In this document: in pieces, positions 3,549 through 8,822 of the stretch
Layout of the letters: every line of letters begins with the position of its first letter
Numbering within the stretch: the stretch's first letter is position 1
Position numbers and translations under genes: made by a program
The notes under the pieces: generated by a model
The model's database searches: none
What the model saw: the letters and a program-made list of their open reading frames with translations, nothing else
What the model was told of the DNA's origin: nothing
Source: a virus
Reading direction: 5' to 3' (one strand)
Virus genome (UHGV): UHGV-0087644
Length of the DNA: 13,730 nucleotides

Positions 3549-3697
3549 TTCCTGCGATACCACGGAAGGTTGATAGCTGATTTCATCGCTTTATTTGCTT
3601 CAATCCACATTTTTGAATCACCAATAAATCTGGCTATTACTGCTTTGTTCTGTGCTGCACGAAGCATCTGGTGATTGATGGCTATTTCATTGCGCAT
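3545..3697 (-). CDS. kil: Kil-like host cell-division inhibitor
   Basis: 50-aa ORF not in track: MRNEIAINHQMLRAAQNKAVIARFIGDSKMWIEANKAMKSAINLPWYRRK; resembles lambda Kil (FIGD-containing core) from memory; immediately downstream of cIII, start overlapping the cIII end. Confidence 0.55.
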   Translation of the reverse strand: MRNEIAINHQMLRAAQNKAVIARFIGDSKMWIEANKAMKSAINLPWYRRK

Positions 3698-3813
3698 AAT
3701 AAGACCTCAACTCTTTTCCATCCGTCACGTAATTTACGGGTGATTCGTTCAAGTAAAGATTCATTTAGTTGGAAGGCACCCATGCGAGCGCCTCCCGCGA
3801 TTGCGTAAATCAT
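3682..3813 (-). CDS. cIII: CIII, FtsH/HflB protease inhibitor
   Basis: 43-aa ORF not in track; contains ESLLERITRKLRDGWKR, matching the conserved lambda CIII core; ATG at 3813 preceded by SD AAGGAA. Confidence 0.8.
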   Translation of the reverse strand: MIYAIAGGARMGAFQLNESLLERITRKLRDGWKRVEVLLCAMK

Positions 3814-3837
3814 GGGTGGTTCCTTATGTTGGTTTTA

Positions 3838-4806
3838 TTAGTAGGTTATTTTTGTTGCGAATACTTCGCCTTTTACGATGGCTGTTATGATATTTTTAGC
3901 AACATCTTCTGATGCGCCAACCTTGATAAGGTCAGCAAGTATTTTGTTATTTACTTCTTTCCGGTGAGCTTTATCCTTTGCTCTACGCTCTTCTTCGTCC
4001 TTGATTCTTTTTCCTTCTGCTATTCTGGCTTGCTCTTTTGCTTCAGCCTCGCGCCGGATTCGTTCAGCCTCCTCCTGTGCTTTTCGGCGTTCTGCTTCAA
4101 TTGCCGCCTGCTTTTCTCTTTCAGCTCGTTCTGCTGCCTCTTTTGCTTCGCGCTGTGCTCGTTGCTCGGCTTCAATGCGTTCACGCTCTGCACGTTCCGC
4201 TGCGGCCTTAGCTTCTGCTTCTCGCCTTGCTGCTGCTTCAATTTCGGCTTTTGCCTTTGCTTCGGCTTCTGCTCTGGCTTTCTCTTCAGCTTCTCTTTTT
4301 AAGCGTTCTTCATACTCTCGCTTTTCCTGCTCCGCTTTGAGTCTTGCCTCTTCTCTTTGGCGGTCAAATTCGCGATCCATCAAAATAGCTATTTCATGGT
4401 CAGACTCAATTTGCTTTGCGAGAGCTTCAGCTGCTGCCTTAGCTTCTTCTTCGGCTTTAATCCGTGCCTGTTCCTCCTCATAATCAGTAAGAGGCTGGCG
4501 CGCCTTGGCTTTCAGTTCATCAAGGCGATCGCGCACTGTCTTGCGGTTGGCATCAATTAGCTTTGGAATTTCCTTCAGTTCAGCAACAAGGTCTTTGCCA
4601 AGACCATCGAGATATGTTTTCGTCTGCGCAACTTTATACGCCAGAGAAGCGATCTCCTTTCTGCCCTTTGCCGTTGTGATATCAGGCACAAAGGACATAA
4701 CTTCACGTTCAACCCTTTGAAGGATTTCTTCAATCTGGTCGGCAGACTGAAATACAGTCATTGCATTTGCTTTTTCAATAACAACTAAATCTGTTACTTC
4801 ACTCAT
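3838..4806 (-). CDS. coiled-coil protein with long E/R/K/A-rich helical segment, function unknown
   Basis: 322-aa track ORF; ATG 4806 with SD GGAGG; folded-looking N-terminal about 110 aa, then about 160 aa of charged low-complexity helix (EAEAKAKAEIEAAARREAEAKAAAERAERE...), then short C-terminal domain ending KITY. Confidence 0.7.
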   Translation of the reverse strand: MSEVTDLVVIEKANAMTVFQSADQIEEILQRVEREVMSFVPDITTAKGRKEIASLAYKVAQTKTYLDGLGKDLVAELKEIPKLIDANRKTVRDRLDELKAKARQPLTDYEEEQARIKAEEEAKAAAEALAKQIESDHEIAILMDREFDRQREEARLKAEQEKREYEERLKREAEEKARAEAEAKAKAEIEAAARREAEAKAAAERAERERIEAEQRAQREAKEAAERAEREKQAAIEAERRKAQEEAERIRREAEAKEQARIAEGKRIKDEEERRAKDKAHRKEVNNKILADLIKVGASEDVAKNIITAIVKGEVFATKITY

Positions 4807-5629: not shown

Positions 5630-5699
5630 ACGGATAGTCCTGGTATTGTTCCATCACATCCTGAGGATGCTCTTCGAACTCTTCAAATTCTTCTTCCAT
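5613..5699 (-). CDS. possible 28-aa highly acidic peptide
   Basis: ATG 5699 preceded by GAGGTG; MEEEFEEFEEHPQDVMEQYQDYPYDYDY; overlaps ral start by 17 nt in another frame. Could be spurious. Confidence 0.2.
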   Translation of the reverse strand: MEEEFEEFEEHPQDVMEQYQDYPYDYDY

Positions 5700-5842
5700 A
5701 TCTCACCTCAAATAAGTGGTTTGCTGCGAAAGTAAATACGCTTAAGTTACCTGTTATTTATCCCACCAAGTTCCGTATCTATCTATCCAGTTACACCAAT
5801 CGTCAAACCCCAGCGATTTTTGTTTGCCGCTTCGATATTTGG

Positions 5843-6025
5843 TCAGCGTACCTCTACTCCTGATGCGCCTCCATCGGGGTCAGGCGACCCATTAAAAGAC
5901 TTTCTGTGCTGAATTTCGTAACGAAGCGTCTTAATCGAAACGTCCACGGCATCGGCAAAACTGATGCCTTCTTCATTGGCCAGTTCCTGAACTACTCTTT
6001 TCAGTTCATTGTCCAAATTTTCCAT
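5843..6025 (-). CDS. hypothetical small protein (60 aa)
   Basis: Track ORF 5843-6049 trimmed to ATG 6025, preceded by AGGGGTGAGGG; MENLDNELKRVVQELANEEGISFADAVDVSIKTLRYEIQ... Confidence 0.45.
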   Translation of the reverse strand: MENLDNELKRVVQELANEEGISFADAVDVSIKTLRYEIQHRKSFNGSPDPDGGASGVEVR

Positions 6026-6100
6026 ACCCTCACCCCTTTGTTTATTCACCGCAGGCCACTCGACCCGCTCGATTCGTTCTGTGCGTAATGCTTGCGCCGA

Positions 6101-6259
6101 TCAGACACCCCAAACTCTGAACCACCAACGAAGAAACATGACGACTGGCGGGGTAGACAGAAGAATGGCCGCATTGATAAGAAGAATGGCCGCAGTGATA
6201 AGCAGACCCAAAATGACCCCCTGCACTACGACCGGGAGTTTTTCATACAGTTTTTTCAT
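6101..6259 (-). CDS. small single-pass membrane peptide (52 aa)
   Basis: Not in track; SD AAGGAG 5 nt before ATG 6259; MKKLYEKLPVVVQGVILGLLITAAILLINAAILLSTPPVVMFLRWWFRVWGV has one hydrophobic helix; contains an in-frame 21-bp tandem duplication. Confidence 0.4.
   Translation of the reverse strand: MKKLYEKLPVVVQGVILGLLITAAILLINAAILLSTPPVVMFLRWWFRVWGV
6160..6201. repeat. 2 x 21-bp tandem direct repeat (one mismatch) inside the membrane-peptide ORF
   Basis: GAAGAATGGCCGCATTGATAA / GAAGAATGGCCGCAGTGATAA; in-frame, encoding duplicated LITAAIL/LINAAIL heptads. Confidence 0.6.
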
Positions 6260-6261
6260 GG

Positions 6262-6603
6262 CTACTCCTTAAGAAGGCGCTCAAGGAATGCGCCATTACA
6301 GTCAATTACATCGATGATCTCTTTGGCTAATGAATCGATATCGTCGCTCGATTCGAAGTCATCCTGTGGGATGTAAAAGCCACCCTCAGTTTTAAACATA
6401 ATTTCCTTGACGGTTAATGCTGCAACCTCATACATAAAGCCATAAACAATGCGTCGAGGGGTGTTATACCTGAGTCCGAGGATCTTTAATTTTTCTGACT
6501 CCTGAGTCAGCTGGTCGTATGCCTTTACCAGCTCCGCTATCAGTCCCTTTTTCAGCTCACCACGCAGTACGTACATCCCGTTAGCCGTTTTATTTTCCAT
6601 CAC
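6262..6603 (-). CDS. hypothetical protein (113 aa)
   Basis: Track ORF; start overlaps upstream stop (6600-6603); no motif recognised. Confidence 0.55.
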   Translation of the reverse strand: MMENKTANGMYVLRGELKKGLIAELVKAYDQLTQESEKLKILGLRYNTPRRIVYGFMYEVAALTVKEIMFKTEGGFYIPQDDFESSDDIDSLAKEIIDVIDCNGAFLERLLKE

Positions 6604-6764
6604 CGAACCTCACTCGCTGTTACTTTGAAATATTGCCGCCGGGCATCGCGTATCTTCTCCAGCTCGCAGTTCTTCGCTGACTGGTGATACTTGCTGATGT
6701 GGCAGACCGGAGTGCGTGGATCGAAGTCACGACCGCATACCGGGCACTTGATGCTGTTCTTCAT
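6600..6764 (-). CDS. small zinc-ribbon protein (54 aa)
   Basis: Track ORF 6600-6821 trimmed to ATG 6764, preceded by GAGGTGG; MKNSIKCPVCGRDFDPRTPVCHISKYH has a CxxC...C..H arrangement. Confidence 0.5.
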   Translation of the reverse strand: MKNSIKCPVCGRDFDPRTPVCHISKYHQSAKNCELEKIRDARRQYFKVTASEVR

Positions 6765-6874
6765 GGGCCACCTCAGATTAATGCGATGGATTTGCCCTTC
6801 GTTTTCTGGCGACCAACACAAGTCACACCCATTTCACTACGTGGCTTGCGGTAGTAAATTATATTTGTTCAGAC

Positions 6875-6897
6875 AATAAAAAACCCACCGAAGTGGG
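6875..6897 (-). terminator. rho-independent terminator candidate (minus strand; tL1-like position after the first gene downstream of N)
   Basis: 5-bp GC stem CCCAC/GTGGG with CGAA loop (6884-6897), abutting the stop of the upstream ORF, followed on the minus transcript by a U-run (plus-strand ATAAAAAA at 6876-6883). Confidence 0.45.
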
Positions 6898-7242
6898 CTA
6901 TGACCATTTTTTATTTGGATTTCGTTGGTGAGCGTGATTAACAACTCTGTGCATTACATCCTCATATTTTTCATCTTCAATTTTTTCGACATCGCGAGGA
7001 AATGGTGTTGCTAATGCTTTGTCAACTTTGTCCATTGGTTCTTCATTAATCTTATATTCAGGACCGTCATCTATAGCATTAAATCCAGGTGTTACACCGT
7101 TTTTTAATGCATATGCTATCCTTTTTTCCCATCTCGCTATTCTCCTCCTGTCTCGAGATGTAAGACCTCTATCAGATACTTTTCTGTTTTGTCCGCGGTC
7201 AGGATTAACATAAATAGTCTTTTTCACCATAAGCATACTCAA
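6898..7242 (-). CDS. hypothetical protein with arginine-rich N-terminal region (114 aa)
   Basis: Track ORF; start overlaps N stop (ATGA); SRDRRRIARWEKRIAYALKNG is basic; followed directly by a terminator. Confidence 0.5.
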   Translation of the reverse strand: MSMLMVKKTIYVNPDRGQNRKVSDRGLTSRDRRRIARWEKRIAYALKNGVTPGFNAIDDGPEYKINEEPMDKVDKALATPFPRDVEKIEDEKYEDVMHRVVNHAHQRNPNKKWS

Positions 7243-7544
7243 TAAGCACCGTACGGTAGTTTACTGTACAATTTTATTTTTTGGACTGCATGTATTTTGT
7301 TTCCTAACGGGTTTGAATCTTTGTAATAAATACTTCTATTTTTTCGAACGACTTCTTCTTTCTTCTTGCAGCAAAGGCTTCCTAGTGATGCTGCTTTGTC
7401 TGCTCTGACGCAACCAGAGAGCTTTAGCGCAATTTTTCGCGCCAGTGCTTCATTACTGCGTCGCTCGGCAATAAGTTCTGCTCTGCGAGCTTTGTAGCGG
7501 CTTTTTGCCGTACCTTTGGATTCTTTCCAGACAATGGTTACCAT
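7239..7544 (-). CDS. N: N-like transcription antitermination protein (phi21-type arginine-rich motif)
   Basis: Track ORF 7239-7574 trimmed to ATG 7544 (SD AGGAG); N-terminus MVTIVWKESKGTAKSRYKARRAELIAERR matches the phi21 N arginine-rich RNA-binding peptide as I recall it; nutL lies upstream. Confidence 0.75.
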   Translation of the reverse strand: MVTIVWKESKGTAKSRYKARRAELIAERRSNEALARKIALKLSGCVRADKAASLGSLCCKKKEEVVRKNRSIYYKDSNPLGNKIHAVQKIKLYSKLPYGAY

Positions 7545-7654
7545 AATGGTCTCCTTTAAGTGGCTTTGGCGCATGACGCGTCGAGGTGCTTATCTTCTCG
7601 ATCGCTGTCTTGCAGCTGCAATTCGCGCCATCCCCAAAACCACTCAAGTTCTGG

Positions 7655-7695
7655 TCTCAACGGTTAGGTTGAGAGTCCGCCGATGTTAAAGAGCC
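7655..7695 (-). promoter_or_regulatory. nutL: boxA plus boxB hairpin
   Basis: Minus-strand reading: boxA GCTCTTTAACA (plus 7684-7695), 9-nt spacer, boxB with 7-bp stem TCTCAAC/GTTGAGA and loop CUAACC (plus 7655-7674). Between the predicted pL and N. Confidence 0.6.
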
Positions 7696-7740: not shown

Positions 7741-7770
7741 AATTTAAGACTTCTTAATTTATTGGTCAAG
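7741..7770 (-). promoter_or_regulatory. pL promoter candidate with overlapping oL operator
   Basis: Minus strand: -35 TTGACC (plus 7764-7769), about 17-bp spacer, weak -10 TAAATT; perfect palindrome TTAAGACTTCTTAA at 7744-7757 overlaps the spacer/-10. Confidence 0.4.
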
Positions 7771-7834: not shown

Positions 7835-7860
7835 AAATAAAAAAGGGGCGAAAGCCCCTT
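7835..7860 (-). terminator. rho-independent terminator for the cI transcript
   Basis: Stem AAGGGGC/GCCCCTT (7843-7849 / 7854-7860) with GAAA loop, followed on the minus strand by UUUUAUUU; overlaps the cI stop codon. Confidence 0.55.
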
Positions 7861-8781: not shown

Positions 8782-8822
8782 TGCTCTTTAACAGTTCTGG
8801 CCTTTCACCTCTAACCGGGTGA
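8782..8822 (+). promoter_or_regulatory. nutR: boxA plus boxB hairpin
   Basis: boxA TGCTCTTTAACA (8782-8793), 11-nt spacer, boxB stem UCACCU/GGGUGA (one G-U pair) with loop CUAACC (8805-8822), the same loop as nutL. Confidence 0.6.

Follow-up and report, generated by a model that had tools for sequence, protein, structure and literature searches.

The window, which here means the whole 13,730-nt stretch of UHGV virus genome UHGV-0087644 that was analyzed, carries directly downstream of an N gene an open reading frame that we identify, with a probability of about 0.9, as nun, the lambda-exclusion and transcription-arrest factor originally known from phage HK022; the prophage that carries it here is a lambdoid mosaic with a phi21-type N. 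The ORF was matched end to end by PHROG 5632 (“Nun-like transcription termination factor,” E = 9e-71), is identical at 107 of 109 positions to chain N of PDB 6ALG (“Transcription termination factor nun” of HK022, E = 8.6e-71), and encodes the very protein annotated as Nun in phage mEp235 (100% identity). The only differences from HK022 Nun are R11S and E63D (mature numbering), both located outside the arginine-rich motif (ARM) and the arrest segment. Scans of the ORF against Pfam, NCBIfam, and PADLOC yielded no match, and PHROGs and the PDB sequence search were the sole sources of a name. Assignment as an N antitermination protein was considered and rejected: none of the Pfam models N_peptide, N36, and Phage_N_antitermin matched, and the C-terminus is the Nun arrest motif.

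Comparison with the nun gene of phage PA28 revealed 10 synonymous and 8 non-synonymous codon differences over approximately 68 and 262 sites, respectively (pN/pS of about 0.2), which is consistent with purifying selection. Given the PHROG and PDB matches and this ratio, the ORF is to be regarded as a genuine gene rather than a chance reading frame. It is an already known, ordinary copy of nun, annotated before in near-identical phages. The features of the locus are listed in Table 1.

Table 1. Features of the nun locus and its regulatory surroundings, with positions in the window
Feature	Position	Strand	Details
Intrinsic terminator	6875..6899	minus	Stem 6899..6893 / 6888..6882, loop TTCG, then T-run; terminator scan
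nun CDS	6898..7230	minus	110 codons, 109-aa mature protein; TAG stop 6900..6898
C-terminal RNA polymerase arrest segment	6901..6954	minus	Mature residues 92-109, MHRVVNHAHQRNPNKKWS; identical to HK022 Nun
Arginine-rich motif (ARM)	7096..7173	minus	Mature residues 19-44, DRGLTSRDRRRIARWEKRIAYALKNG; 1HJI match
Homologue of the HK022 nun promoter	7263..7291	minus	In the last 20 codons of N; -35 ATGCAG 7291..7286; -10 TACAGT 7268..7263
phi21-type N antitermination gene	7239..7544	minus	101 aa; ATG 7544 behind AAGGAG; TGA 7241..7239
nutL	7655..7694	minus	boxA GCTCTTTAAC 7694..7685; boxB UCUCAAC-CUAACC-GUUGAGA 7674..7655 (folds as hairpin)
Candidate pL promoter	7741..7769	minus	TTGACC-17-TAAATT, between the repressor gene and nutL; consensus scan only
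nutR	8783..8822	plus	Downstream of cro; boxA GCTCTTTAAC 8783..8792; boxB UCACCU-CUAACC-GGGUGA 8805..8822

Start codon of nun and junction with N

The ORF list gave a 114-codon version of the gene (6898..7242, minus strand) that starts at a TTG and is four codons longer than the version starting at ATG 7230. Because all homologues, including those with 45-66% identity, have their start at ATG 7230 (M-x-KKT...) and the crystallized or purified Nun has the N-terminus VKKT (PDB 6ALG), ATG 7230 is probably the start of nun, and TTG 7242 was rejected. The preliminary description correctly placed this gene first after N, an N-type gene ending directly upstream, but its proposed overlap of the start with the N stop depends on the TTG and is not retained. 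With the ATG start, nun begins 8 nt downstream of the N TGA, a close juxtaposition with no overlap, and is preceded by a weak GAG 7 nt upstream.

A gap of 8 nt allows termination-reinitiation, and translational coupling of nun to N during lytic growth is thus possible. Similarly tight spacing between an N-type ORF and a nun-like gene was found in several related loci (designated by L numbers), namely, L010 and L015 (1 nt each), L011 (8 nt), and L014 (22 nt), and in L004 the nun-like gene lies about 2 nt behind an uncalled 52-aa ORF with an ARM. However, a universal N-to-nun operon was rejected, given that nun-like genes are found directly behind putL with no upstream N in L007, L009, and L012. 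Because the N-nun junction is not fixed among relatives (PA28, HK022, L007, L009, and L012), coupling does not appear, by this comparison, to be a defining property of nun. PA28 (L013 1595-1948, 1902-2339) and Stx1a-type phages encode an intact nun as a 117-codon ORF, of which the GenBank annotation covers no more than 45 aa. Owing to a 1-nt deletion, N of PA28 runs on and overlaps nun by 47 nt, and both PA28 and the Stx1a-type phages have a degraded stem in the terminator behind nun (ACCCAC..ATAGAT).

Functional segments of the Nun protein

The ARM of the window Nun is identical at all 26 positions to the Nun peptide whose structure has been solved in complex with boxB RNA (PDB 1HJI, chain B), and the basic segment SRDRRRIARWEKRIAYALKNG, which had earlier been described as resembling nucleic acid-binding peptides, lies within this stretch. 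That description was apt: by this identity, the segment is predicted to be the lambda boxB RNA-binding helix. The C-terminal segment contains all residues implicated in arrest (H93, R94, N97, H98, H100, R102, K106, K107, W108, and S109). In the cryo-EM structure, nine of these (H93, R94, N97, H98, H100, R102, K106, K107, and W108) contact RNA polymerase, DNA, and RNA, and H98, K106/K107, and W108 have roles in arrest (PMC5386594). Among 15 full-length Nun family members, down to 29% identity, an aspartate and the pattern VNHAH-R----KW are invariant, and Q102, P105, and K107 are nearly so.

Exclusion of superinfecting lambda by Nun comes about through an arrest of E. coli RNA polymerase that is specific to lambda DNA: the ARM, near the N-terminus, competes with lambda N in binding the boxB hairpin of lambda nut transcripts, and the C-terminal segment then blocks translocation at pause sites (PMC5386594). 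In vivo, NusA, NusB, NusE, and NusG are required, and Mfd removes the arrested complexes (PMC5386594). The homology search returned a clear match to a known protein, with the qualification that its function, ARM-mediated RNA binding, is related rather than unrelated to what had been guessed from the basic segment.

The lambda N, phi21 N, and P22 gp24 proteins resemble Nun in being small, basic, and probably disordered, in binding nut boxB through an N-terminal ARM, and in depending on Nus factors. The outcome is opposite, however, with Nun causing arrest rather than antitermination, and the C-termini differ: that of Nun is the arrest motif VVNHAHQRNPNKKWS, whereas that of N is, for example, RKNRxxYYKDSNPLGNKIHAVQK. 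A Nun family profile also matched lambda-type N proteins over the ARM and the middle region, with E values around 1e-4.

Putative promoter of nun and its terminator

The hairpin AGCCCAC-TTCG-GTGGGTT (6899..6882), which begins inside the nun stop codon and is followed by TTTTTTATT, has a predicted dG of -10.3 kcal/mol (z = -2.4). Its stem differs from that of HK022 by compensatory changes (CCCAC/GTGGG against CCCGC/GCGGG). The terminator scan, the fold, and the compensatory changes all bear out the terminator that had been noted directly after the stop, which in fact overlaps the TAG. A hairpin with a T-run is also present 3' of the nun-like genes in L007, L009, and L010.

Assignment of the nun promoter rests on the GenBank annotation of phage O276, which carries the HK022 immunity region. 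No difference in the promoter hexamers was seen between the window, mEp235, HK022, and PA28. The -35 hexamer is weak, and a simple sigma-70 scan of the window did not call the promoter. The hexamers are contained in the part of N that codes for ..IHAVQKIKLYSK... The DNA of a block of about 40 nt spanning the promoter hexamers is nearly invariant in the metagenomic locus L011 (about 2440-2480), despite strong divergence of the N codons on either side and of nun (65% protein identity). In L009, the lambda-type N (3617-3940), which has no nun gene behind it, uses other synonymous codons for this peptide. Such a pattern would fit a sequence constrained both as coding DNA and as a promoter.

Together, these elements suggest that nun is a promoter-gene-terminator cassette that could be expressed from a repressed prophage, with the activity of the promoter carried over from HK022. 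The earlier proposal that the dose of this protein is tied to N would therefore not hold in its simple form: the promoter hexamers conserved inside the 3' end of N would give N-independent expression in the prophage. From the evolutionary standpoint, a modest point is that nun would be a self-contained cassette with its promoter embedded in the coding sequence of N.

The resident N gene and nut sites

The gene upstream of nun (longest ORF 7239..7574) matched PHROG 271 (1e-31), and its equivalent in mEp235 is annotated N (“antitermination protein N”). The Pfam N_peptide match was sub-threshold (18.1 against 27.9 bits), but the ARM, ESKGTAKSRYKARRAELIAERR, is identical at 22 of 22 positions to the phi21 N peptide (PDB 1NYB, chain A). 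An exact boxA occurs twice in the window, once in nutL, between the candidate pL and N, and once in nutR, after cro. In both sites, the boxB hexaloop is CUAACC, the phi21 boxB loop (PMC12550061). Thus, by sequence, N and both nut sites are assigned to the phi21 type. The lambda-type boxB (GCCCTGAARAAGGGC) is absent from the window beyond a single match with three mismatches, which was rejected because it lies inside an ORF, cannot form a hairpin, and is at chance level. With the nut sites and the N ARM of the phage all being of the phi21 type, the lambda-specific Nun should not act on the N/nut system of its own phage. Robert et al. (1987) reportedly found Nun to be inactive at the nut sites of phi21 and P22.

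The position of the candidate pL agrees with the layouts of mEp235 and HK022. The repressor gene is P22-c2-like, and, combined with a phi21-type N/nut system, this makes the phage a typical mosaic. Shortly before the candidate pL, the repressor gene ends in a strong terminator hairpin that overlaps its stop codon (AAGGGGC-TTTC-GCCCCTT followed by a T-run; 7843-7860, minus strand; -12.1 kcal/mol, z = -2.8) and would shield pL from transcripts running on from the repressor gene.

Proposed action of Nun and alternative roles

In a lysogen, transcription of nun would start at a weak constitutive promoter of its own, within the 3' end of N, and the transcript would end at the hairpin overlapping the nun stop, yielding a short monocistronic message independent of pL and N. 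Upon superinfection by a lambda-type phage, residues 19-44 of Nun would bind boxB in the nascent nutL and nutR transcripts of the invader in competition with lambda N, Mfd would clear the arrested complexes, and the early genes of the invader would not be expressed. The resident phage would be spared, because the phi21-type N that it encodes reads the phi21-type boxB (CUAACC) of its own nut sites. In the lytic phase, transcription from pL would reach nun as well, behind N. Transcripts from pL, which carry nutL and would be N-modified, should read through the nun terminator; those that start inside N have no nutL and should stop there. Translation of nun may, in lytic growth, be coupled to termination of N 8 nt upstream. 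We infer the exclusion activity, promoter activity, terminator efficiency, and lack of self-targeting in this phage by analogy with HK022, the only phage for which nun-dependent exclusion is known.

The proximity of the two genes also prompts a reading in which Nun modulates its own phage, binding the resident nut RNA or RNA polymerase and tuning N-dependent readthrough of the early left operon. With only 8 nt between N and nun, co-translation from the pL transcript is plausible, and the tight spacing recurs in L010, L011, L015, and L014. Nevertheless, we consider such a role very unlikely: the resident boxB and N ARM are of the phi21 type, whereas the Nun ARM is the lambda boxB-binding peptide; lytic growth and lysogenization of HK022 nun mutants are normal (PMC4124055); nun occurs behind putL with no upstream N in HK022, L007, L009, and L012; and nun has a conserved putative promoter and a terminator of its own. 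The suggestion in the preliminary description of an RNA-binding accessory factor is, accordingly, right with respect to RNA binding (the ARM being that of 1HJI_B) and unsupported with respect to the partner, given that Nun antagonizes the N of another phage and that the resident N/nut system is phi21-type.

Another reading is that high levels of Nun made in lytic growth from the derepressed pL-N-nun transcript hit the host RNA polymerase non-specifically and aid host transcription shut-off. At high concentration, Nun acts without nut RNA, arrests elongation complexes, and is toxic to E. coli, as described in passages of PMC5386594 (citing Uc-Mass 2008) and PMC4124055, and in the window nun sits directly behind N in the strongest early operon. 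However, micromolar Nun is needed in vitro (PMC5386594), and this range would have to be reached in the lytic phase, when the phage's own transcription would be equally exposed. Furthermore, HK022 nun mutants have no lytic phenotype, although HK022 lacks the N-nun coupling (PMC4124055). This reading is therefore, in our estimate, marginally less probable still than modulation of the phage's own operon. The broader notion of an early host-takeover function finds no support either, the sole known role of Nun being exclusion of lambda and lambda imm434 (PMC4124055) and nun mutants being normal. Finally, the RefSeq label “hypothetical protein” and the degraded terminator stem and 45-aa GenBank fragment of PA28-type Stx phages might suggest a relic that no longer functions and simply travels with the N module. 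This reading is scarcely credible, because the reading frame is intact in the window and in PA28, substitutions are biased to synonymous sites (pN/pS of about 0.2), and the mapped functional residues, promoter hexamers, and terminator are all intact in the window.

Relationship to HK022, mEp235, and other phages

Taking the window gene as nun, the closest comparison is with HK022, in which Nun has the same ARM and arrest segment, the same promoter hexamers, and a terminator directly after the stop, and in which nun occupies the same place in the early left operon beside the immunity region. Beyond the two substitutions and the terminator stem, the surroundings differ. HK022 lacks N, relies on put RNA instead, and carries nun behind pL-putL, whereas in the window a full phi21-type N and nutL precede nun. 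Downstream of nun, HK022 carries IS903 and the window two small ORFs.

The homology to HK022 extends 114 bp upstream of nun, to position ~7356 of the window; the segment 7243..7356 (minus strand) corresponds to the last 37 codons of N. In HK022 (phage O276, L002 about 1862-1975), this N relic shows 2 nt differences over the 114 bp and one Y-to-C change, has lost the stop, and still reads EVVRKNRSIYCKDSNPLGNKIHAVQKIKLYSKLPYGAY in the N frame. Retention of the last 37 N codons upstream of nun suggests that the putL module replaced nutL and the 5' two-thirds of N in an N-nun ancestor of HK022. That HK022, the N-less phage in which Nun was discovered, keeps the end of such an N is the second modest evolutionary point. 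Another relic was detected in a Citrobacter braakii prophage (L007 about 958-1060), where the nun terminator is immediately followed by an N C-terminus (VERKNHRTWYKDANPFGNKIHAVQKSRGKSTPLI*), called as a 45-aa gene, which gives a second, independent instance of a truncated N beside nun.

The phages mEp235 and mEpX1 (both with an annotated N and Nun pair), vB_EcoP_Kapi1, and Lambdavirus PDP110P1 have N-nun DNA 97.5-99.1% identical to that of the window (99.1% for mEp235). The phages of the mEp235 group share with the window the nutL-N-nun-terminator layout and the P22-c2-like repressor. The region 3' of the nun terminator differs: mEp235 has a 624-bp HK244-like ORF, and the window has the two ORFs mentioned above.

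Nun-like proteins with different ARMs

A Nun family profile searched against 1.84 billion representative proteins showed that the family is tiny (21 clusters at 50% identity). In a set of its members (P0022-P0035), the C-terminal arrest motif VVNHAHQRxPxKKW is retained, and the arginine-rich N-termini are very different. A lambda-like ARM in the family reads MDAQARRREKR..., and that of P0022 and P0024 is lambda-N-like (MDAQARRREKRK.KQEEWK); P0029 and a 97-aa ORF of L009 contain a phi21-N-like ARM with the pattern NSKNRR[FY]K.RGE; phi21-like ARMs in the family read NSKNRRYKERGELIAKR... and NSKNRRFKARGE...; other ARMs resemble neither lambda N nor phi21 N. Four loci were compared with respect to the resident N, and its ARM differs from that of the Nun-type protein in three of them (the window, L010, and L014). 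Taken together, this looks like swapping of ARMs on a constant polymerase-arrest module.

We tentatively propose, as a lead and not as a result, a modular “anti-N” exclusion family in which an arrest module, D-x-[MI]-x-x-x-VNHAH-x-R-x-x-x-KW, would be combined with swapped ARMs that set the target range, usually behind a resident N. The nun gene of the window would be the lambda-specific member, and the N-nun layout would be ancestral to that of HK022 (putL and the 114-bp N relic). We consider this scheme possible, although the odds are somewhat against it, and it does not concern the canonical nun of the window. A search of the accessible literature returned nothing relevant on co-occurrence of N and Nun, “Nun-like” prophage genes, the HK022 N remnant, or a modular anti-N family. 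Should the ARM-swapped relatives be functional, Nun would no longer be an isolated oddity but one of a family of programmable, RNA-guided factors that arrest polymerase.

Several of these loci have distinct arrangements. In L009 (2501-3145), and also in L012 (2501-3117), two genes for Nun paralogues, arranged in tandem and overlapping by 7 nt, lie between a putL-like leader and a terminator. The first paralogue of L009 is Nun-like at 60% identity, and the second, the 97-aa protein with the phi21-N-like ARM, is 35% identical to Nun and has the same C-terminus. A lambda-type N (107 aa) is located about 500 bp further downstream, so that this phage appears to have put, two nun genes, and N. L014 encodes a lambda-type N followed by a nun-like gene with a different ARM. 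In L004 (about 3843-4000), the uncalled 52-aa ORF mentioned above has an arginine-rich start (MNSRQRRRAWRHERRQNERM...) and a good Shine-Dalgarno sequence and ends 2 nt before the gene for P0022, in which a lambda-N-like N-terminal half is fused to the Nun C-terminus. A relative of P0022 (79.5% identical) in Hafnia phage Pocitis76 is annotated “transcriptional regulator.”

The leaders of the nun-like genes in L007 (about 440-530), L009 (about 2355-2440), and L012 (about 2330-2440) contain about 70 nt near-identical to the annotated HK022 putL. By this similarity, the put-nun layout appears to extend to Citrobacter braakii and metagenomic phages. Rfam yielded no family for the window or for any of seven related loci, not even at putL of HK022, and has no model that detects put.

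Distribution, annotation, and neighboring ORFs

The N-nun block was detected at a coverage of at least 80% in 217 of 5,426 complete E. coli genomes, with partial matches in 820, and is present in 86 phage records, including mEp235, mEpX1, Kapi1, PA28, and many Stx1a phages. A protein cluster (P0001) headed by the exact Nun protein with two extra N-terminal residues comprises 556 member sequences on 860 contigs. In RefSeq E. coli genomes (e.g., L008 7029-7675), both N and Nun are labeled “hypothetical protein,” and in nr, “transcriptional regulator.” The RefSeq label reflects the fact that Pfam, NCBIfam, and PADLOC contain no Nun model. As a consequence, nun bears one of these two labels in hundreds of E. 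coli genomes, and a reader working from the sequence alone could not name the gene. For the window itself, the finding matters little, nun being a textbook case of phage exclusion and its prophage module common in E. coli.

Between the nun terminator and ral (5697-6880), the window contains two ORFs on the minus strand. The 113-aa ORF (6262-6603) has no family in Pfam, PHROGs, NCBIfam, or PADLOC. The 73-aa ORF (6600-6821) shows a zinc-ribbon-like C-x2-C ... H-x3-H pattern and weak matches to the Rad50 zinc hook and zf-Di19. Among 50,697 phage records, this stretch was found in only one genome, an unannotated one, that of Wanchaivirus PDP110P2, and the ORFs may be accessory or moron cargo.
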